Part shown: in pieces, positions 705-62,413 of the stretch
Numbering within the stretch: the first letter of the stretch is position 1
Layout: each line of letters opens with the position of its first letter
Source of the DNA: Eledone cirrhosa
Lineage: Eukaryota
NCBI GenBank assembly: GCA_964016885.1
Contig: OZ024741.1
Span: 148,986,001-149,050,000, forward strand
Direction of reading: 5' to 3'
Length of the DNA: 64,000 bases
The notes under the pieces: model-generated
The model's input: the letters and a program-made list of their open reading frames with translations, nothing else
Databases searched by the model: none
Told to the model about the DNA's origin: nothing
Translations under genes and position numbers: made by a program

Positions 705-960
705 CAATATATAAACAGTTTTATAAATAATTTTGACGTAACTTATTATAAGCGACCATTATATTTGGAAGCTGTCTGGATAGTGATTTGTTTATAATTA
801 TTTAGTTATAGTGTTAAGCACAGTTAGAAAAAAGACGGAGAGAAAGAAATATATATATAAATAGATAGGAGGAAGTGAAAAAGAAGTGAAAAAGAAGTGA
901 AAAATTTATATATATATATATATATTTATTCAGTCATAGGATTTTAAACCAATACCGAAT

Positions 961-3100
961 ATGGATAAATACCCTTTGGACTACTCTGTAAAGAATATCC
1001 CAACACCTTCTAACACTCTCTACACGAAAATACTGATAGACAAAGTAGAGAAGGTTGTTAAAAGAATGAGATGGAAAGCTTTGATTCTCGATGGTCAATT
1101 TAACACGGATTCTACGGAATACTTTGACATCAAAACTCACAAATACCCGCAAAGAGTAAAAGATATGACCGCCTTTGAATTAGATCTAGTTAACCTTATC
1201 AACAACATCAATTTTCGTAAGTACTCTAACCCCTTTCAATCCAAATTATCTAATGATATTTCTACTTTCAAATCTTCTAATAATAAGTTCATCTTCTCAG
1301 ATAAAACTAAAAACCTATATGAAGTTAATAATAATTTACACGACCAACTATTAATAGATAATATCACCTCTAAATACCAAATAGCTAATATAAATACGTA
1401 CTATAATATAAATAAGGAAGCTAAAGAATTAGCTTTTTCTTTAAAAATAGATAATAGGACAGAAAAACTTGCTAAACGTTCTGCGTATATCACCCTTAAA
1501 GATCATAAACCCGACTTTATTAATCGCCCTAGTTGTAGATTAATCAACCCTGCTAAGACTGATATTGGTCTTGCCAGTAAAAAAATTTTAAATAAATTAA
1601 ATACACACATTAGAAGTAAGTCTAAATTACTCCAATGGATAAATAGCTCTTCCGTAGTACATTGGTTTAATAATATTAAAAACAAAATCAGTTCTAGATT
1701 CACCCAATTCGATATCGTAGATTTCTACCCATCTATTACTCAGACCCTTTTAGTGAAAGCTTTAAATTTCGCTAGAGGGTTCACTAATATCTCCGATATT
1801 GAAGAGGATGTAATCTTGCATGCTAGGAACACTCTACTTTTTAATGATAATGACACTTGGGTAAAAATATCTAACCCAGAGAACCCATTCGATGTCTCAA
1901 TGGGCTCTTATGACAGTGCCGAGGTTTGTGATCTGGTCGGCCTATTCCTCTTACATACACTTAAAGAAAAATTTCCTAACCATATTTTTGGGCTTTATCG
2001 CGATGATGGTCTAATACTTTCCCCATACCACCATAGGCCATAACTTAGATAGATTAAGGAAAGACTTAATAAAAACCTTTGCTAGTTTTAATCTTAAAAT
2101 TACTATTGATACTAATCTTTCCAACGTAGATTTCCTAGATATAAACTTAGATTTGCCTACTGCTTCTTATAAACCATACCATAAACCTAATGAAAACTTA
2201 AAATATATTAATAAAGGATCTTGCCATCCACCTATAGTTTTTAAAAACCTTATCCCTAATATTAGCCGTAGGATCTCCACCCTCTCTTCATCAGAAGCTA
2301 TTTTCAACAAGGCATCCCCCTACTATAATAAAGCCCTCCAAAATAGCGGCTTTAGCGAACCGATTAAATACATACCTAACTACACTAACTCTATTAAACA
2401 TAAAAATAGGAAAAGAAAAATAATCTGGTTCACACCCCCCTACTCTCTAACAGTTAAAACTAATGAAGGCAAAAAATTCCTAGAACTCCTAGATAAACAT
2501 TTCCCTAGAACACATAGATACTATAAGATCTTTAACAGAAACTGTGTTAAAATTAGCTATTCCTGCGGTCCCCCTATTAAGTCCTATATCCTCAACAAAA
2601 CATCACCTAGAGAAAATCAAACTTGCTCCTGTAGAATCAAAAGTGAATGCCCATTACAAGGTAAATGCAACACCAAAGCCATTGTATATGCGGCTAATGT
2701 GACAACTATCAGCAACAACCATCCAGTCACCAGTGAACGATATGTGGGTATGACGCAAGACAAATTCAAAACGCGTTATTACTCACATGTCGCATCCTTT
2801 CGACATCCAGAAAAAAGATTTACAACAGCTCTGGCTAGCAGAATCTGGGATTTGAAAGACCAAGGCATCCAATATAAACTAGATTGGTCAATTTTGAACC
2901 AATCTAAAAAATATGCTAGAGGAACAAGAAAATGCACGCTCTGCATAAATGAAAAATTTTGGATATTGCAAAATCTCAAATCACCAAAGACCTGCCTGAA
3001 CACAAAGACGGAAATTTTTACCAGTTGCCCACACATGAAATCACACCTGCTTTCCAGCTCATATAAACTTAACACACTTTCAGACACTTATCCTCCATAA
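961..3100 (+). mobile_element. Penelope-like element ORF (RT + C-terminal GIY-YIG endonuclease), about 712 aa with a single +1 frameshift near 2017-2040
   Basis: RT motifs QFDIVDFYPSI, SMGSYDSAEVCDLVG and YRDDG, then VDFLDINLDL in the next frame. Cys linker CSCRIKSECPLQGKC, GIY-YIG motif IVYAA...YVGMT...KFKTRY..H, and CTLCINEK. Confidence 0.93.
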
Positions 3101-4323: not shown

Positions 4324-4401
4324 ATTGCCTCGTCTGACGAACGAATGAAGTCGTTTATTTCGTATTCGCCTCATTCGCGAAACCTCTGGTAATGAGGTAA
4401 T
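4324..4401 (+). ncRNA. Type I hammerhead ribozyme (GUA, cleavage after 4391) in the 3' pLTR/UTR of the 961-3100 PLE
   Basis: attgcctcgt CTGACGA a-cgaatga...tcattcg-c GAAA cc-tct-gg TA atgaggtaat. Stem I is 10 bp including G-U pairs. The element runs into (TA)n at ~4503. Confidence 0.88.
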
Positions 4402-4544
4402 TATATTGTATTGATTTTATACATTAAATTTTGCTCTGATATTTACATAGAGCACTCTTCATTTCTATGACCTTTTCTGTTTCCAACTGAAATTTCAATA
4501 CTTATATATATATATATTTATATATATATATATTTATATATATT

Positions 4545-4577
<33 letters not shown>

Positions 4578-4594
4578 ATTTATATATATATATT

Positions 4595-4629
<35 letters not shown>

Positions 4630-4630
4630 T

Positions 4631-4681
<51 letters not shown>

Positions 4682-4696
4682 ATATTTATATATATT

Positions 4697-4729
<33 letters not shown>

Positions 4730-4815
4730 ATATTTATAACGAAGGAAATGTGGTAAGGAACCAGGTGGACCATAACGCACCAAAGTACTCAATACTTGAG
4801 GTAGTAGAGTGGGTA

Positions 4816-4932
4816 ATAGGAACCAGTAAGACCCCGACAGCTGAGCTCAAGCCGTTTCGACGGCTAATTCTGGTCCAGAATTAGCCGTCGAAACGGCTTG
4901 AGCTCAGCTGTCGGGGTCTTACTGGTTCCTAT
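4816..4932. repeat. Perfect palindrome, 58-bp arms, 1-nt loop (4874), carrying the 3' half of a hammerhead
   Basis: The arms are exact reverse complements. The right arm has GAAA cggc-ttgagctca-gctg TC ggggtct. The cassette 4737-4932 is flanked by (TA)n. Confidence 0.95.
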
Positions 4933-4962
4933 ATATATTTATATATAGTTTTAATATAGATG

Positions 4963-7426: not shown

Positions 7427-7853
7427 ATAAAATATTAAACAAATAATGAATAAACAATGAGACAGTTCCTTATATTAAACAAAAAAAGTTCATTATTTAA
7501 CGATCGTTTCTAGGATATATATGTGTTAGAATTGGCATGCATATTCAACAGATCTATGTACAAAATTATACAAAATTATACAAACTATCAAGATTAAATA
7601 TACATACCAACACATATATACGCCGTCTTCAGAAATAATGATTATTTCTGAAGACGGCGTATATATGTGTTGGTATGTATATTTAATCTTGATAGTTTGT
7701 ATAATTTTGTATAATTTTGTACATAGATCTGTTGAATATGCATGCCAATTCTAACACATATATATCCTAGAAACGATCGTTAAATAATGAACTTTTTTTG
7801 TTTAATATAAGGAACTGTCTCATTGTTTATTCATTATTTGTTTAATATTTTAT
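7427..7853. repeat. Perfect palindrome, 213-bp arms, 1-nt loop at 7640
   Basis: 7427-7639 is the reverse complement of 7641-7853, with no mismatch seen by eye. Confidence 0.95.
7641..7788 (+). ncRNA. Type I hammerhead (GUU) with a very long stem II insert; mirror copy at 7492-7639 on the - strand
   Basis: attattt CTGAAGA cggcgtatatatgtgttgg...ctaacacatatatatccta GAAA c-gatc-g TT aaataat. Stem/loop III is palindromic (AACGATCGTT). Confidence 0.82.
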
Positions 7854-27647: not shown

Positions 27648-27696
27648 GTAACTGGCACTGCTGCCTTTTGAAACCTTATCCCCACATACAGCAAAC

Positions 27697-28854
27697 ATGG
27701 ATTTAAACAACAACTTGACTGATAAGCAATTGCTGTTAGAAATCAGCAAAAAACAAATTTATATTTATCTACCTGCCATTATTTACCTGAGCATTGCCAT
27801 GATAATGGGTGTTATTGGGAATGTATTTGTCAGCTACATTTACTATTACAAACTCAGACCTACACCAGCTAATTTATTTGTAGTCATATTAAGTGTCTGT
27901 GACTTTCTTGCCAGTTTGGTATGTATACCTATGGATATTTCTATCCTTGCACATCCATATGTGTTTGAAAATGATATTGCATGTCGGATAATCCGATTCT
28001 TTGTCATGGATTTATCCGTCACTTCTGGAGTCATTGTCTTTGCCATTTCCATAGATCGTTTCAAGAAAGTGTGTTTGCCCTTGAAAAAACAATTTAATCG
28101 ACGTAATGTTGGTGTTATTTCAGCTATTGTTATCATCTTTGCAACTGTTCTATCATTGCCAGGCCTCTATGTCTATGGAACTACACATACAGCAATACCA
28201 AACACACATCTGAACGGCTCGATTTGCTCGATTTCAGAAAAAGCTGACGACTATGTAGCCAATGGTTTCATAGTCCTTCTCATGTCAGTATGTTTGCTTC
28301 TTTTACTATCATTCAGTACAATTTATTGCTTGATTGCATTGAAACTGTGTCGCTACAGAAAGCAAAGGACAACACTATGTGATTCCATGAAGGTGAAATC
28401 TGTCAGTCATGATGATAATTCAAAAGAGATGACTGACAGTAATGACTACATCAAAGAGAGTCGCCGTATTGACAGGATACAGAAGTCAAAAGCCAAAGGC
28501 CTCCAAAATGAAAAGGAAACATTTCGAGTTCGTGCAAACACACAGACCAAGAAAGAACCAACTTCTTTCATGAATATGACACGGACAACTTTAATTATGT
28601 TCTTTGTAACTCTTACTTGGGTGTTAAGTTACATCCCTCACCTAGCATCAATGTTTATTCTATCCAAAACAGCCGACTTGAAACACACACTCAGTCCAAC
28701 TGAAAGTGCTTTGTTTGAGATAGCATTGCGCTCTTTCTACTTGAACAATATGATAAATCCATTCATTTATGGTATATTTAATTTTCGCTTCCGTAATGAA
28801 GTTATAACATTATTGAACAAGACTATTTGTTGTCAAAGATGCAAATCATCTTGA
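27697..28854 (+). CDS. Class A (rhodopsin-like) G protein-coupled receptor, uninterrupted CDS, 385 aa
   Basis: Seven hydrophobic segments. TM1 GN, TM2 LSVCD, TM3 Cys and DRF, ECL2 Cys, long ICL3, TM6 SYIP, TM7 NPFIY, and C-terminal Cys. Confidence 0.95.
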   Translation: MDLNNNLTDKQLLLEISKKQIYIYLPAIIYLSIAMIMGVIGNVFVSYIYYYKLRPTPANLFVVILSVCDFLASLVCIPMDISILAHPYVFENDIACRIIRFFVMDLSVTSGVIVFAISIDRFKKVCLPLKKQFNRRNVGVISAIVIIFATVLSLPGLYVYGTTHTAIPNTHLNGSICSISEKADDYVANGFIVLLMSVCLLLLLSFSTIYCLIALKLCRYRKQRTTLCDSMKVKSVSHDDNSKEMTDSNDYIKESRRIDRIQKSKAKGLQNEKETFRVRANTQTKKEPTSFMNMTRTTLIMFFVTLTWVLSYIPHLASMFILSKTADLKHTLSPTESALFEIALRSFYLNNMINPFIYGIFNFRFRNEVITLLNKTICCQRCKSS

Positions 28855-40679: not shown

Positions 40680-43600
40680 ATGGAAAAATTTGAACAGGGA
40701 CAAAACAGAGAGGCAGTACAACGAATGTTTATTAATTTCACGCTCTGGAGAGTGGGGTGTTGGTGGGGGACGACGTTTCGGGCATAAGCCCTTCCTCAGG
40801 TGAGAAGTGTGTGGGAACAGAGTTCAAAGGGTGTGTAGGGGAGTGGTGGAGAGACATATAGCGAAAGGAAACGGTGCGAATGAAAAAAATAAAAATAAAA
40901 ATAAAAATAAAGCATGATCAAAAAAAATACAAGGAATGAAATAAATTTAAATATAAAAGCATGATCAAAATAAACTGAAATTAAAAGGGGGGTAAAACAG
41001 GTGGTGGAAGGGTGTGGGGTGTGTAGGGGTGGTGGAGGGTGGAGTGGGGAGAGGGAGACGGGGTGTCCGAGCGGGGAGGGCTGAAGGTGGTGTGTGTGTG
41101 TAGGTGTACGTGTGTGTGTGTATGTATGTGAAAGTAAGGGTTGGGGGAAGAACGGGGTTGCATGTTCAGGAAGAGGTGTGTGGGGGGGTCGGAGTGTCTG
41201 TGCGTGTGTGGATAGAGGGATGGGGGGAGAGGAATCAGGAGGCTGAGGGTGTAAATATGTGGTGGAAAGCACGTGTGTGTGGGGGGTTTAAGCGTGTTGT
41301 GGGTGTAGGTGGCGTGTGGAGAAAAACATTTTTGGGGGTGTGTGTGTGGGTGAGTTATATAGGTGATTACGTAAGAGGATGGTTGAAAAGTTGGTAAAAT
41401 CCAAAGGTGTTTAGTGGATTCTGTGGTGGTCAATTTCTGCGTGCGAGTATTCCATGAAGCGATGGTCGGAAGAGGAGAGATGTGGGGTGCGCGCGCAACA
41501 GGAAGTGGTCAAGCAGTGGGAGTGCTGTGTGTCTGTTTGTGCTGGGAGGTGGTCAGAGGGCATAGCAGCAGTCGGTGGAATGGTAAAGGGGCGAGGATGG
41601 GTAGGTGTGAAAGTTGGAGTGAGGAGGGTGTGTGTGTGTATTAGTAGAGGTGTTAGTGGGATGAGTGAGTGTGGAGCGAGGGTGTGGGTGGAGCGAGGGT
41701 GTGGGTGGAGCGGGGAGAGAAGGGTGTGTGTGGTTCTATGGAGGGAGTGTGGTGTACTGGTGTGTGTGTAGTTTGATGAATGGGTGTTAGTGGGTGTTAG
41801 TATACGGGAGGTGGGGAGGGGTTGAATGCAGGTGTGAGTGGGGGTTAGTGGTGGTAGGGTGTGTAGAGTTGGTGGTGTACGAGGGTGTGTGGGTACGTGT
41901 GCGTGGGGTTGGGGGGTGTTAGTGATGTTAGTTGCGTGTGGGGTGGGTGGTGTAAGTGGGTGCGTGTGTTCGTGTGCTAGGGGTTAGGGGGTGTTAGTGA
42001 GGTTAGTTGCGGGGTGGTGGGATGGAGGTGTGGGGGTGAGAGGTGTGGGGTGAGGGTTAGTGGTGGTAGTAGGGTGTGTGTTTAGTGTGAGCGCGTGTAT
42101 ATATGTGCCGGTGGGTGTGTGCGTGTGATAAGGAGGGGGGAGGAGGAGAAGAAGGGAGGGATGTTAGTATGTTAGTTGGGGAAGGGTGGTCAGATGAGGG
42201 GTGGAGTGGAGGTGTTAGTATTGTTAGTTGTGGGGTGGGCGGTGAAAAGGAGGGGTGTGTTAGTGGTGTTAGTGGGAGATAAGTGTGGGGGGAGGGGGGC
42301 GGTCGAAGGCTAAATGAATAAGGGTGGGGAGTTCAGGCCGGGGGGAGTGTGGGTCTGTAAGATGAAGATAGTTCGTTGTTCGACCCTAAGACGATTGGCG
42401 GGTGTTCCGTGGCACTGGAGTAGGCCACATCCCACCACCCCACAGAGATGGCGTGCAGAATGTCCAGGGCCACCAAAGTGGCGGGCGATGGGGGAACTAC
42501 CCCCGAGACGAATATCCCGGAGGTGCTCAGTGAATCGGTCCGCCAGGCGACGTCCCGTCTGTCCGACATAGACTAGGTTGGAGGAAGTGCAGCGGAGGGC
42601 ATGCCGGACAGAGAGAGAGTGGTCGTTGGGACTCTGGAAGGTGGTGGTGTTGATGATGTGGGGACAGGTGTTGCAGCGGGGCCTAGAACAGGGAAAGGAA
42701 CCGGGGGGGGGGGGCAGAGCGTGGGTTGGGGGGTAGGGAGCTGTGGACGAGGAGGGTGCGGAGATTGCATGCGCGTTTGAAGGAGGGGAGTGGTAGGGTT
42801 GGGAAGATGTGGGAGGTGGAGGGGTCGGACTGGAGGCGTCGGAAGAGGCGGCGGATGGGGCGGTGGAGGGGTAGGGTGGAGGGGTGGTAGGTGATGGGGA
42901 AGGGGAAGGGGAGACGGTGGGTGGGTGTGCGGTGGCGTGGGGTGAGGGTGGTGGAGCGGTGGACAGCACGGGCGCGGGTGAGAGCGGTGTGGACGAGAGA
43001 GGGGGGGTAACCTCTGCGGATGAAATGGCTGACTAGGGAAAGGGCCTGGGACTCAAAGTCAGCATCTCGGCTACAGAGGCGGCGGATCCTGAGAAGTTGG
43101 GAGTAGGGAATGGAGTGTTTAGTGTGGGTGGGGTGGGAAGAGGTGAAGTCGAAGTAAGAGTGGGAGTCGGTGGGTTTGAAGAAGGCGGAGGTGACGAGGG
43201 AGTGGTGGGAGGGGTCGAAGGCGACGGAGATGTCTAAGAAGTGGACGTGGGTGGTGGAGATAGAGGTGGTGAAGTGGAGGGAGGGGTGCAAGGAGCAGAA
43301 GAAGGAGAGAAAGGAGTCGAGCTGTTCTCGGGTGAGGGTCGTGGCTCCGATACAGTCGTCAATGTAACGACCGTACAGTTCGGGCGTGGGGCCGGTGTAC
43401 TGGGCAAAGATTTGGGCCTCAACATGGCCAACAAAAAGGTTGGCATAGTTCGGGCCTATTCTTGTACCCATGGCTACCCCTGTGACCTGTTGGTAAAACT
43501 CACCCGAGAAGGAGAAACAATTCAGGGTGAGGACCAGCTCGGCGAGGCGAAGGAGGGTGTGGGTGGAGGGAATGGGGGAGGGGCGAAGGTCGAGGTAGTG

Positions 43601-44080
43601 TTTGAGGGCGCGTAGGCCGTCGGCGTGGGGGATGACGGTATAGAGGGACTTGATGTCTAGGGTGAAGAGGAAGGGCTGTGGGCCGGGTGGGTAGGTGAAG
43701 GAGTCGAAAAGGCGCAGGGCGTGGTTGGTGTCGGAGATGTGGGAGAGGAGGGTGGTGACAAGGGGAGCGAGGATGGAGTCGAGAAAGGCGGAGATGAGTT
43801 CGGTGGGGCAGTTGCAAGCGGAGACGATGGGGCGGCCGGGGTTGTCGGGTTGGTGGAGTTTGGGGAGGAAGTAGATGGTGGGGGTGCGGGGGGTGCAGAC
43901 GATGAGGTGAGAAGCGGTGGGGGGAGGAGGGAGGAGGCGATAAGGTCTTTGATGGTGGAGGAGACTTGTTGTTGGTAGAGGGGGGTGGGATCGGAGGGCA
44001 GAGGGCGGTAAAAGAGGGGGTTACAGAACTGCCTCAGGGCTTCGGCCGTGTAGAGGTCCGCGCGCCACACCACTACGGCG

Positions 44081-58518: not shown

Positions 58519-58705
58519 TAGGAAAATGTTAGACCCCGACGGCAGAACTCAAGCCGTTTCTGGACTCCAGAAATAGCCGTCGAAACGGCTTGAGCTCTGC
58601 CGTCGGGGTCTCACATTTTCTTATTACCCACTCTACTACCCTAAGTATTGAGTACTCTGGTGCGTTATGGTCCACCTGGTTCCTTACCACACCTCCTTCG
58701 TTATA
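58519..58705 (+). mobile_element. Second fold-back cassette of the 4737-4932 family, carrying a hammerhead 3' half (GUC)
   Basis: Arms 58519-58560 and 58582-58623. GAAA cggc-ttgagctct-gccg TC ggggtct. Confidence 0.88.
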
Positions 58706-59189: not shown

Positions 59190-61597
59190 GTTGAGACAGT
59201 AAACAAAAAACAGAAAAACAACGTGGAAGCGAAGAGACAGTACAAATGTTAATATTAGATTCACGCTTGAGAGTGGGAGGTGGGGGGCCGACGTTTCGGG
59301 CATAAGTCCTTCATCAGGAGAAAAGTGGGCAGGAAAAGAGTTCCGAGAGTGTGAGGGGGAGTGGTGGAAAGACATTAAAAAGAGGGGGGAGAGAAAAGAG
59401 AGGAAAAAAATTTTAGTGGGTAAAAAAAATTAAAATGAAACAAGTGGTGAAAGGGTGTGAGGAGTGTAGGGTTGGTGGTGGGTTGAGGGGTGGAGATGGT
59501 AGAGGGAGAGGGAGACGGGGGGTTCTGAGTGGGGAAGGCTGAAGATGGTGTGTGTGTATGTGTGTAGGTGTACGTGTGTGTGTGTGTGGATGTGAATGTG
59601 AGAGTTGGGGGAAGAACGAGGTTCCATGTTCGGGTAATAGGGAAACCGGGGTGGGGGAGAGGGGGCGTGTGGAGTCCGGAGGCTGAGTGTGTGTGTGTTT
59701 TTGTGTGGTGTGGGTGTATGGTTGCATGGTGCGAAAATAGTGTAAGTGTTTGTGTGTGTGTGTTCCTGGGTGATATTCCACGGACTATAAGACCGGATGT
59801 TGTAGAATCCGAGTGTGGAAAGGTCAATTGCTGGAGCGGTGAACCGGTGATGTAAAATCCTGGTATGGTGGTGAGGAAGTGAAGAGTTGTGGGGTGCGCG
59901 CGCAACAGGAAGTGGTCAGAGAGTCAAGGCAGGGCGAAGGAGGTAAGAGGAAGGAGATAGCAGTAGGAAGGTGCCAGCAGGCAGAGTAGTAACAGGTATA
60001 GAGATGGTCTGTATGTGGTGTGGAATGTGTGTGTGTGTGGGGGCGGGGGTGCGGTGGACAGGGGAGGGGGTGCGTATTTGAGAAAGGTTGAGAGAGAGAG
60101 GGTCGTGGGGGGTATATTAGTGGCCGTGTTAGTGGGATATGTGTGTGTGGGGGTGTTGGTAGTGTGGGGAGCGAGAGAGTGAGAGAGAGGGTGCTGGGGA
60201 CAGTCGGAGTGAGTGTAATGTACTGGTGTGTGTGTGTGCGTGTTTGGATATGAGCGTGTGTGTGGTAGAGTGGGTGTTAGTATGGCTGATGGTGGGGGAG
60301 GGGTTGAATGCGGGTGTGTTAGTGGGGGTTTGTGGTAGTAGTGTGAGAGTGGAGTAGGTGGTGTATCGGAGTGTACGTGGGTGTAGGTGAGTGTATGTGT
60401 ATTCGTGTGTAGTGAGGGGGAAGGTGGGTTGGGGGATGTTTAGTATTATTAGTGGTGGGGTGGTCAGATGTAGATGTGTGGGTGGGGGTTAGTGATGGTA
60501 GTAGGGTGTGTGAATGGTGTGAGTGTATATATGTACTGGTGACTGTGTTGAGGGTGTGGGTGCGCGTGTGATAGGGGGAGGGGTGGGGTGTTAGTATTAT
60601 TAGTTGTGGGGTGGGTCAAGGGGTGGGAGGAGGGCTGGGAGTGGAGGGGATGGTGAAACTAGGGAGTGTGTTAGTGGTGTTAGTAGGGTGTGTGTGTGTG
60701 TGTGGGGGATGACGGTCGAAGGCTAAAAGAAGAGAGGTGGGGAATTCAGGCCGAGAGGTGTGTGGGTCTGTAGGGTGAAGATGGTGTGTTGCTCGACCGT
60801 GAGGTGGGTGGCGGGGTCCCATGGCATTGGATCAGGCCACAGACGGTGAGGTGGAGAGCGGGGTGTCCCGGGGAACCAAAGTGGAGGGCGATGAGGGAAC
60901 TCCTGCCGAGACGAATATCTCGGAGGTGCTCCGTGAATCGATCCGCCAGGCGACGTCCAGTCTGTCCGACATAACGTAGTCCATAGACGAGGTTGGAGGA
61001 GGTGCAGCGGAAGGCATGCCGTACAGAGAGAGAGAGTGGCTGTTGGAACCCTGGAAGGTGATGGTGTTGGTGATGTGGGAGAAGGTGTGGCAGCGAGGTC
61101 TGGAGCAGAGGAAGGAACCGGGGGGTGAGCTGCAGACGAGGAGGGATCGGAGATTGCGCGCGCGTTTGAAGGAGAAGAGGGGTGGTGATGGGAAGATGGG
61201 GGAGGTGGAGGGGTCGAACTGGAGGGGTGGTAGGTGAGGGGAAGGGGAGACGATAGGTCGGGGTGCGGGGGCATGTGGTAAAGGCGGTGGAGCGGTGGAC
61301 AGCCCGGGCGCGAGTGAAGGCGGCGTGGACGAGGAAGGGGTGTAAGCTCTCCGGATGGAATGGCTGACCAGAGACAGGGAAGTGGAAGGAGGAGTGGAAG
61401 GAGCAGAAGAAGGAGAGAAAGGAGTCGAGCTGTTCTCGGGTGAGGGTCGTGGCTCCGATGCAGTCGTCGATGTAACGACCGTACAGTTTGGGCGTGGGGC
61501 CGGTGTATTGGGCAAAGATTTGGGCCTCAACATGGCCAACGAAAAGGTTGGCATAGTTGGGGCCCATTCTTGTGCCCATGGTTACTCCAGGGACCTG
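59190..61597 (-). mobile_element. Second Neptune-type PLE copy, more deleted
   Basis: MGTRMGPNYANLFVGHVEAQIF...YIDDCIG and YVGQTGRRLADRFTEH. Its UTR is homologous to 40680-42310. Confidence 0.9.
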
Positions 61598-61599
61598 CT

Positions 61600-62413
61600 C
61601 GGACTCGTTTAGCATAGTGCTAACCTATGGCCTCCAAATACCTGATACTCAAAAACTCAGCGATGTCCAGTAGTGCTAAGTTTAATGATTGCAGACTTGG
61701 TACGAGTGATGAAGAACGTGTCCCGCATGTGCGATCCAACTGAAATGGAAAGACACATCCAACACTTCATCAACCGCATGCAGCTCTCTGGCTACAACCA
61801 AAGAGACAGAATCAGAGTATACAAAGGAGCCACGGAGAAGTATAAGACCCTCATAGAAATGGACATGAAAGGAATTTGGCCATTATACCGGAGCAAATCA
61901 TGGAATAGCTTAGATAGGACTAAACATAAGATAAGGAAAGCCACCTCGTGGCACGACAACCAGAGATACCACTGTACTAATAAGAAATGTGTTATACATA
62001 AAGTGAACCCCCAGATAAACTGTAAAACTAAAAATGTAGTCTATAGCATAAGATATACAGAGGGTACTTGCAAAAACATGACAACAACATACATAGGTGA
62101 GAGAGCTCGAAGCATAGGAGAAAGAATAGACCAACACTGGGGGGAATTAAAAGGACAAAAACATGGTTCAGTACTATACGAACATGCTAGACAAAGACAT
62201 GACGGTAATATAGACAACATGGAAATTAAAATAATATCTAAACATAGAAATGACCCAACAGGTAGGCAAATCAGAGAAGCGAGCGAAATAGAGCTTAGAA
62301 AACCAAAGTTAAACAGGAAAAAACGAATGTTTCGCAGTATTAGTTATAGATGTTATCGCCGGTTTAGCAGGGTGGTAGAATCAGTGGTCGTTAGTTGCCA
62401 GTGTGGTAAGTGA
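61600..62413 (+). mobile_element. Fragment of a third PLE type (RT thumb + GIY-YIG)
   Basis: FINRMQLSGY, NCKTKNVVYSIRY...TYIGERARSIGERIDQHW...SVLYEHA...RQIREASEI...LNRK. Confidence 0.82.

Follow-up and report, generated by a model that had tools for sequence, protein, structure and literature searches.

The window, the whole 64,000-nt stretch of Eledone cirrhosa DNA analyzed here, holds two fold-back repeats that each carry part of a hammerhead ribozyme motif. Copy A has perfect 58-bp arms (4816-4873 and 4875-4932) around a single-base centre, as the original prediction had described, and both arms contain the GAAA block, stem III, GUC, and the 3′ strand of stem I, with no CTGANGA upstream of the GAAA of this copy, again as described. 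Copy B (58519-58705), the diverged fold-back reported in the opposite orientation with a turn at tttctgga-c-tccagaaa, is likewise present at 83% identity to copy A, has the same 3′ parts (GAAA, stem III, GUC, and the stem I 3′ strand), and misses the hammerhead 5′ half. Regarding hammerhead membership, each arm of both copies thus holds one half of the core, the 3′ half, and the second is missing; what takes the place of the CUGANGA half is the antisense of the 3′ half, and not its own antisense as had been claimed. Similarly, the TTTC previously read as the inversion junction of copy B is in fact a 12-nt deletion in the short arm, the real junction lying at 58566. The two arms of copy A match the pLTR of an intact element at another locus (L199) with 100% identity, and the long arm of copy B belongs to a different subfamily, with the marks AAATAGCC and TGCCGTC. 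The features are as follows, assigned by sequence unless otherwise stated, with element positions counted from the A of TTAGT (+1):

4503..4738: left flank of copy A, a (TA)n-type microsatellite target
4739..4873, minus strand: copy A long arm, element +4 to +138, hammerhead 3′ half plus tail (by identity to L199)
4739..4818, minus strand: 80-nt tail seen on one arm only, +59 to +138 (by position), which presumably lies between two reverse-transcription start sites (a meaning taken from PMC11167929)
4831..4858, minus strand: hammerhead 3′ half of the long arm, with GAAA, stem III, GUC (predicted cut after 4836), and the stem I 3′ strand (by sequence and structure count)
4873..4875: point at which the arms of copy A meet head to head, overlapping by 1 nt (a junction found in 333 copies)
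4873..4929, plus strand: copy A short arm, element +2 to +58, with the short end TTCC followed by TA (by identity to L199)
4890..4917, plus strand: hammerhead 3′ half of the short arm, predicted cut after 4912
4930..4948: right flank of copy A, TA-rich
58521..58566, minus strand: short arm of copy B, from +1 as far as the short end, with the 12-nt deletion between two GAAA repeats (site 58557-58560; by sequence and identity)
58566..58701, plus strand: long arm of copy B, from +3 as far as the long end, with GAAA at 58582 and a predicted cut after 58604

In the 3.0-Gb genome, 42,882 sites match a 32-nt pattern for the 3′-half arm exactly; the reversed pattern, used as a control, has no match. 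Via copies that extend further upstream, we reached full-length units of 3.53–3.55 kb, arranged in tandem and encoding a 717-aa ORF with a reverse transcriptase (RT) followed by a GIY-YIG domain. Five tandem arrays with this period were found, two of which have an inverted partial copy within the fetched stretch. Given that a Pfam search of the ORFs returned no matches, the assignment to the EN+ Penelope-like elements (PLEs) is based on the motifs named in Craig et al. (2021, PMC8557442). The translation contains YRDD and VIY...YIG, and the features seen include the single RT plus GIY-YIG ORF, tandem pLTRs, an inverted 5′-truncated copy, and a one-sided tail. The likeness to the Hydra clade as described in that work extends to DKT, a CxCX5C linker, CxxC, CxH, the absence of CCHH, a (TA)n target, and a hammerhead in the pLTR; by this motif list, the parent is a Hydra-clade EN+ PLE retrotransposon, and with an RT-encoding parent the earlier suggestion of a link to reverse transcription stands. 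It departs from the clade in having A8 with U3 (or C3), a loop II of ~35–40 nt, a 5-bp stem III, a 3.5-kb unit, and RWR where the clade has RWK, the hammerheads in file S2 of PMC8557442 being all C3-G8 with loop II of 3–10 nt. On the element map, the 5′ strand of the core begins at −43 and TATTTAAA lies at −29; the predicted cut falls after +41, the short end is at +58, the long end at +138, and the ATG at +232. A whole insertion measures ~190 bp.

A second Hydra-type PLE lies in the window itself (940-3100 and 4327-4400, both plus strand), with a frameshift-split ORF of 43% identity to the parent over 355 aa, which has RWK (940-2043), and it terminates in a hammerhead of the canonical C3-G8 type whose loop II has 22 nt. 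Non-LTR retrozymes (background in a bioRxiv retrozyme paper and PMC6155905) are recognized by tandem non-coding units with a complete hammerhead in each; copies A and B are instead single head-to-head stubs. An array that does fit this description occurs elsewhere in the genome (L201, G000:C2:356028500-356033500), a retrozyme-like run of eight 299-bp units with the complete U3-A8 motif. The 20 nt of loop II that end exactly at +1 are missing there, the sequence near +1 being joined to a point 20 nt upstream.

The native pLTR reads, in order, ACCCC, UUGAnAA, a stem II enclosing ~35–40 nt, GAAA, a 5-bp stem III, GUC, and GGGGU, that is, three stems around a core with stem I open. Judged from this order, the full-length element carries a predicted type I hammerhead motif with the variant core UUGAnAA (U3-A8). 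The agacccc-CTGANGA consensus expected by the original prediction was borne out in the ACCCC 5′ strand of stem I, but not in the core; a consensus without CUGANGA had been named as the outcome that would count against that prediction, and it is literally what was found, yet a variant core exists in its place and the 5′ strand of stem I is present. The 5′ halves numbered 6,288 with a pattern leaving positions 3, 7, and 8 free, 13 of which were canonical C3-G8. Among the first 100, counted by eye, 74 were U3-A8, 24 C3-A8, and 2 U3-G8, and all four bases occurred at N7. C3-G8 was also seen in four related diverged copies, which had been selected with the canonical pattern. A search for CTGANGA 6–30 nt before the GAAA block gave 36 matches, and none of the 30 inspected was a native core, these being a mixture of junction inserts, captured foreign sequence, and matches in the native loop II. 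An Rfam scan of the 64-kb window found no hammerhead. An HDV-like ribozyme and a tRNA-derived SINE had been considered by eye, but the discovery of the native 5′ half and of the parent ORF led us to abandon both.

In 17 chosen native copies, 86.9% of cells were paired in the named hammerhead structure, compared to 25–48% in slid controls, and two-sided changes were confined to four pairs of stem II (all across one lineage split), with none in stems I and III. The tree of copies, distorted by unrelated flanks, served only for sorting them. In the youngest subfamily, the hammerhead junction is the minimum-energy fold, with an ensemble share of about 0.4, and in a C3-A8 copy the share is about 0.001; the RNAalifold consensus favours another fold in which GAAA is buried in a hairpin. 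Given the C3-A8 mismatch in 24 of the first 100 5′ halves, the hammerhead may be inactive in some subfamilies. We did note that whole subfamilies are C3-A8 (L073, L198, L229, L230, L284-L293), the one copy tested disfavouring the hammerhead fold; these could represent a possible intermediate between C-G and U-A or the dead ribozyme of a once-active lineage.

The U3-A8 core is a published natural, active hammerhead variant (Perreault et al. 2011, PMC3088659) and is found in the Cercyon PLEs of Schistosoma mansoni (Cervera and De la Pena 2014, PMC4209133). The Eledone element shares with Cercyon the same core swap in a PLE pLTR, and motif pairs on opposite strands have also been seen there. The Cercyon and other natural U3-A8 motifs described in these papers are, however, minimal and without helix III, whereas the Eledone motif has a full helix III and a long insert in helix II, within which the stubs end.

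The position of this boundary was determined with the first 100 of the 42,882 matches, which cover the first 16.3 Mb of contig C1 and were not selected for their upstream sequence. A total of 87 arms were truncated and 13 read through. Among the truncated arms, 64 start within −5 to +7 of the A of TYAGT, with peaks at −4, −1, +1, and +2, 11 start further upstream, and 12 downstream of +7, so the enrichment of breakpoints expected earlier at this spot is indeed present, as a window of about 12 nt and not a single base. An inverted family arm lies directly upstream in 80 of the 87, although such extents can overshoot through chance matches. A diverged subfamily with a distinct loop II (2,075 matches) behaves the same, with 21 of 30 arms starting in −5 to +7 and a mode at +1. 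Across the 17 aligned native copies, the only invariant columns between the strands of stem II are the T, A, G, and T of TYAGT and one G. TYAGT resembles the arthropod initiator consensus, and the TATA-like TATTTAAA lies 29 nt upstream of +1 in the youngest subfamily and is missing from the diverged one. To look for the extra G that a cap would leave, the base before +1 was read by eye in the 100 listed arms; it was G in 15, C in 14, A in 3, and T in 68, and the partner arm accounts for many of the G and C. In the RNAalifold consensus, TAGT can also pair with the 5′ strand of stem II, and this modelled pairing could explain its conservation.

The second Hydra-type family, with its canonical core, provides a comparison. 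Nine of its 11 genomic copies are truncated, starting (by eye) just before stem I in four, at the core in two, and inside stem II in three; given that these stops fall at or near the front of the ribozyme, the boundary in loop II is a property of the UUGAnAA family.

The arms are combined in a strikingly regular manner. The sample resolved, in genome coordinates, into 81 insertion units (101 arms), comprising 58 fold-backs, 14 read-through units, and 9 without an inverted arm. Long and short arms were paired in 56 of the 58 fold-backs, one each being short with short and mid with short, and none long with long; the same long-short pairing was seen in 28 of 29 fold-backs of a second set and 16 of 19 in the diverged subfamily. 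The exact junction of copy A recurs in 333 copies of several subfamily haplotypes, and in the first 100 of these (by eye) the arm following it was the long one in 53 and the short one in 47. As one asymmetric junction occurs in both polarities, the junctions are formed anew with each insertion, which agrees with the recurrent mechanism proposed earlier. Centres of 0–1 nt occur at the junctions, and in 3,289 fold-backs both arms reach +1 with 1–12 varied bases between them. Other partners of stubs that end near +1 are internal sites of the 5′ UTR or ORF (L010, L171/172, L174, L193, L195, L196) and, in some cases, foreign sequence; joints to internal sites or 20 nt upstream are expected of a jumping cDNA end. 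In a set biased to young copies, the subfamily marks of the two arms were identical in 56 of 71 fold-backs, the arms matched two existing haplotypes in three, and linked differences were present in L125 only. Separately, stubs at L031, L044, and L051 (~1350-1500) are joined at or near +1 to one common foreign sequence. This sequence resembles the end of a different hammerhead-bearing repeat in antisense, in which case the joins would reflect template switching across families.

With a parent element, one long and one short end, a common boundary at TYAGT in loop II, and freshly made junctions, the reading that we favour, and consider reasonably likely, is that the fold-backs are aborted PLE insertions in which the RNA starts inside the ribozyme, each of the two target strands primes a cDNA, and these cDNAs are joined after running off the RNA at its 5′ end. 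Transcription would begin on the A of TYAGT or slightly ahead of it. The 5′ pLTR of the RNA would then hold only the 3′ half of the ribozyme, and for that reason be incapable of self-cleavage, together with both start sites (+58 and +138). In the cut (TA)n target, each strand would prime one cDNA at one of the two start sites, and RT, starting internally, would have 58 or 138 nt to copy before running out of RNA template, in the manner of retroviral strong-stop DNA. Both cDNAs ending at the start of the RNA would give the arms their common boundary. Copying of the body would require a jump to the 3′ pLTR, with which +1 to +41 would be held in common if the complete 3′ ribozyme cuts at C17. Mostly this jump would fail, and the two cDNA ends would be joined through 0–2 nt of microhomology or short inserts to yield the palindrome; repeated successful jumps would yield the tandem arrays. 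We counted in favour of this proposal the 42,882 exact 3′-half arms compared to 6,288 5′ halves (found with a looser pattern), and against it the width of the boundary, the 12 of 87 arms that stop downstream of +7, the missing TATA-like box of the diverged subfamily, the modelled pairing of TAGT, and the C3-A8 mismatches; against its two cDNAs we counted that the arms nearly always bear the same subfamily marks, which is also expected with one template.

The placement of the RT start in the 5′ pLTR of the RNA, with one cDNA per strand, draws on in vitro data for PAc, the Anolis Poseidon protein, which cuts and extends both strands (Frangieh et al. 2024, PMC11167929). In that system, two internal RT start sites bound the tail, the first 172 nt of the ORF are needed on the RNA, and insertion does not require ribozyme cleavage. 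The ORF start lies within the ribozyme in PAc and at +232 here, and the account of PAc insertion in that paper neither places the start of the RNA nor explains inversions.

With two cDNAs still being joined, the boundary could instead mark a place in loop II where RT stalls or the RNA is processed, on a longer template (a read-through or circular RNA). We regard this as unlikely, though it is the strongest of the alternatives. A structural stall finds room in that +1 is base-paired in four of five predicted folds; in the main subfamilies, positions of about −4 to +5 form the 3′ strand of an inner hairpin, tandem arrays of four full units could supply long or circular templates, and 13 of 100 arms do read through. 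On the other hand, the diverged subfamily breaks at the same place despite its different loop II, with +1 unpaired in the fold of its member L281, and RT passes stems III and II without comparable pile-ups. Two processing sites were ruled out: the predicted ribozyme cut, at +41, lies 40 nt from the boundary, and a splice acceptor at TTAG would omit the AG that many arms keep.

Snap-back self-priming, in which the cDNA (or an antisense template) folds near its end and copies itself before the endonuclease trims one arm to the short end, is a published hypothesis for PLE junction palindromes (Arkhipova et al. 2013, PMC3846280), would account for arms that nearly always belong to one subfamily, and comes closest to the role of snap-back or annealing point given to the hairpin, as the apex of stem II, by the original prediction. 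The native pLTR offers no such hairpin at the junction: TTCTGG was not found in the two native pLTRs checked, and the native loop II is of other sequence. Since each arm starts (A)GTCCAGAA and the arms meet head to head, the hairpin is instead created by the inversion. In addition, centres of 0–1 nt are impossible as priming loops, a fixed side would be predicted where one asymmetric junction shows 53:47, the two arms, frequently both extending to +1, are then separated by unrelated bases, and the arms of L125 bear different linked marks. For these reasons, we find snap-back improbable, and more so than a stall.

That the palindrome is a non-autonomous MITE- or SINE-like element, copied whole from one or a few masters, is very improbable: many copies are identical over 196 bp, but a young parent explains this identity, and the junctions are highly varied, even the commonest-looking one occurring in just 333 copies, which span several subfamilies and both polarities. 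A perfect palindrome flanked by long TA runs does assemble poorly, yet fold-back chimeras of the assembly or library are the least credible source, given opposite-strand joints at identical element positions in short-read contigs of public runs X1 and X4 (which may share the study of the assembly), fixed long and short ends, and older copies whose arms have diverged from each other (copy B); a short-read contig of public run X5 holds a further fold-back joint, more 3′.

The formation of inverted ends in PLEs and the role of their hammerheads are described as open questions in PMC8557442 and PMC11167929. Insertions of EN+ PLEs with inverted pLTRs are known from Adineta (Pen2a, Pen2, and Pen3a; PMC3846280), with a general scheme in PMC8557442. 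Like the Eledone stubs, these have an inverted head-to-head pLTR, a palindrome at the junction, a tail at one end, and an AT-rich or (TA)n target, and a TATA plus Inr-like pair in a pLTR is noted there too. The tail is 80 nt here and 30–40 nt in those accounts; the Eledone insertions further differ in measuring only ~190 bp, in numbering tens of thousands of copies, and in having the junction within the ribozyme motif. With the inverted-pLTR architecture and the U3-A8 core already known, the surprise is limited, and the new point is an RNA start inside the ribozyme. In the open literature, we found no paper on a transcription start within a PLE hammerhead or on a strong-stop model for PLEs.

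LTR retroelements first make minus-strand strong-stop DNA, which then undergoes the first strand transfer. The proposed start of the RNA inside the ribozyme would, as a model only, share with them priming near the 5′ end of the RNA, run-off, and transfer via a short terminal repeat. It differs in that the primer is cut target DNA and not a tRNA, there is no integrase, and the repeat would be bounded by a ribozyme cut and not by a poly(A) site; the Eledone element is not a member of the LTR retroelements, and the comparison is one of how it works. Carried further, and more tentatively, the promoter may be nested in loop II of the element's own hammerhead, the pLTR acting like U3-R-U5 with a 41-nt repeat for strong-stop transfer and the palindromes being failed transfers; we see this as possible, short of probable. 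In such a case, the 5′ copy would be born with half a ribozyme plus the RT start sites, and the whole 3′ copy would cut the RNA. If the RNA does start inside the ribozyme, the ribozyme would have the simple task of forming the 3′ end and nothing else, and the way PLEs are copied would be similar to strand transfer of the LTR type. The family is in any case a very large in vivo record of PLE insertion, from which three sharp statements follow: each of two start sites gives one cDNA, the 5′ boundary lies within the ribozyme, and every insertion makes its junction anew.

Several further observations were made. In a four-unit array of the parent (L199-L200, G000:C1:437195500-437215499), one codon of the ORF differs between units 1 and 3 on the one hand and 2 and 4 on the other, an alternation that hints at a dimer template or a later duplication. 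The window also contains a perfect palindrome at 7427-7853, with 213-bp arms and a 1-nt centre, which is probably a fold-back of another repeat family, and related sequence is present in L010 (~2100-2320). Minimal hammerhead-like motifs (CTGA.GA, a short stem II, and GAAAC) were noted on the minus strand at 40799 and 59317, downstream of RT/GIY-YIG-like frames on that strand at 42310-44020 and 60746-61624, respectively. Finally, an uninterrupted 400-aa frame at 27652-28854 (plus strand), in which DRF and NPFIY motifs can be read by eye, resembles a seven-helix receptor encoded in a single exon.
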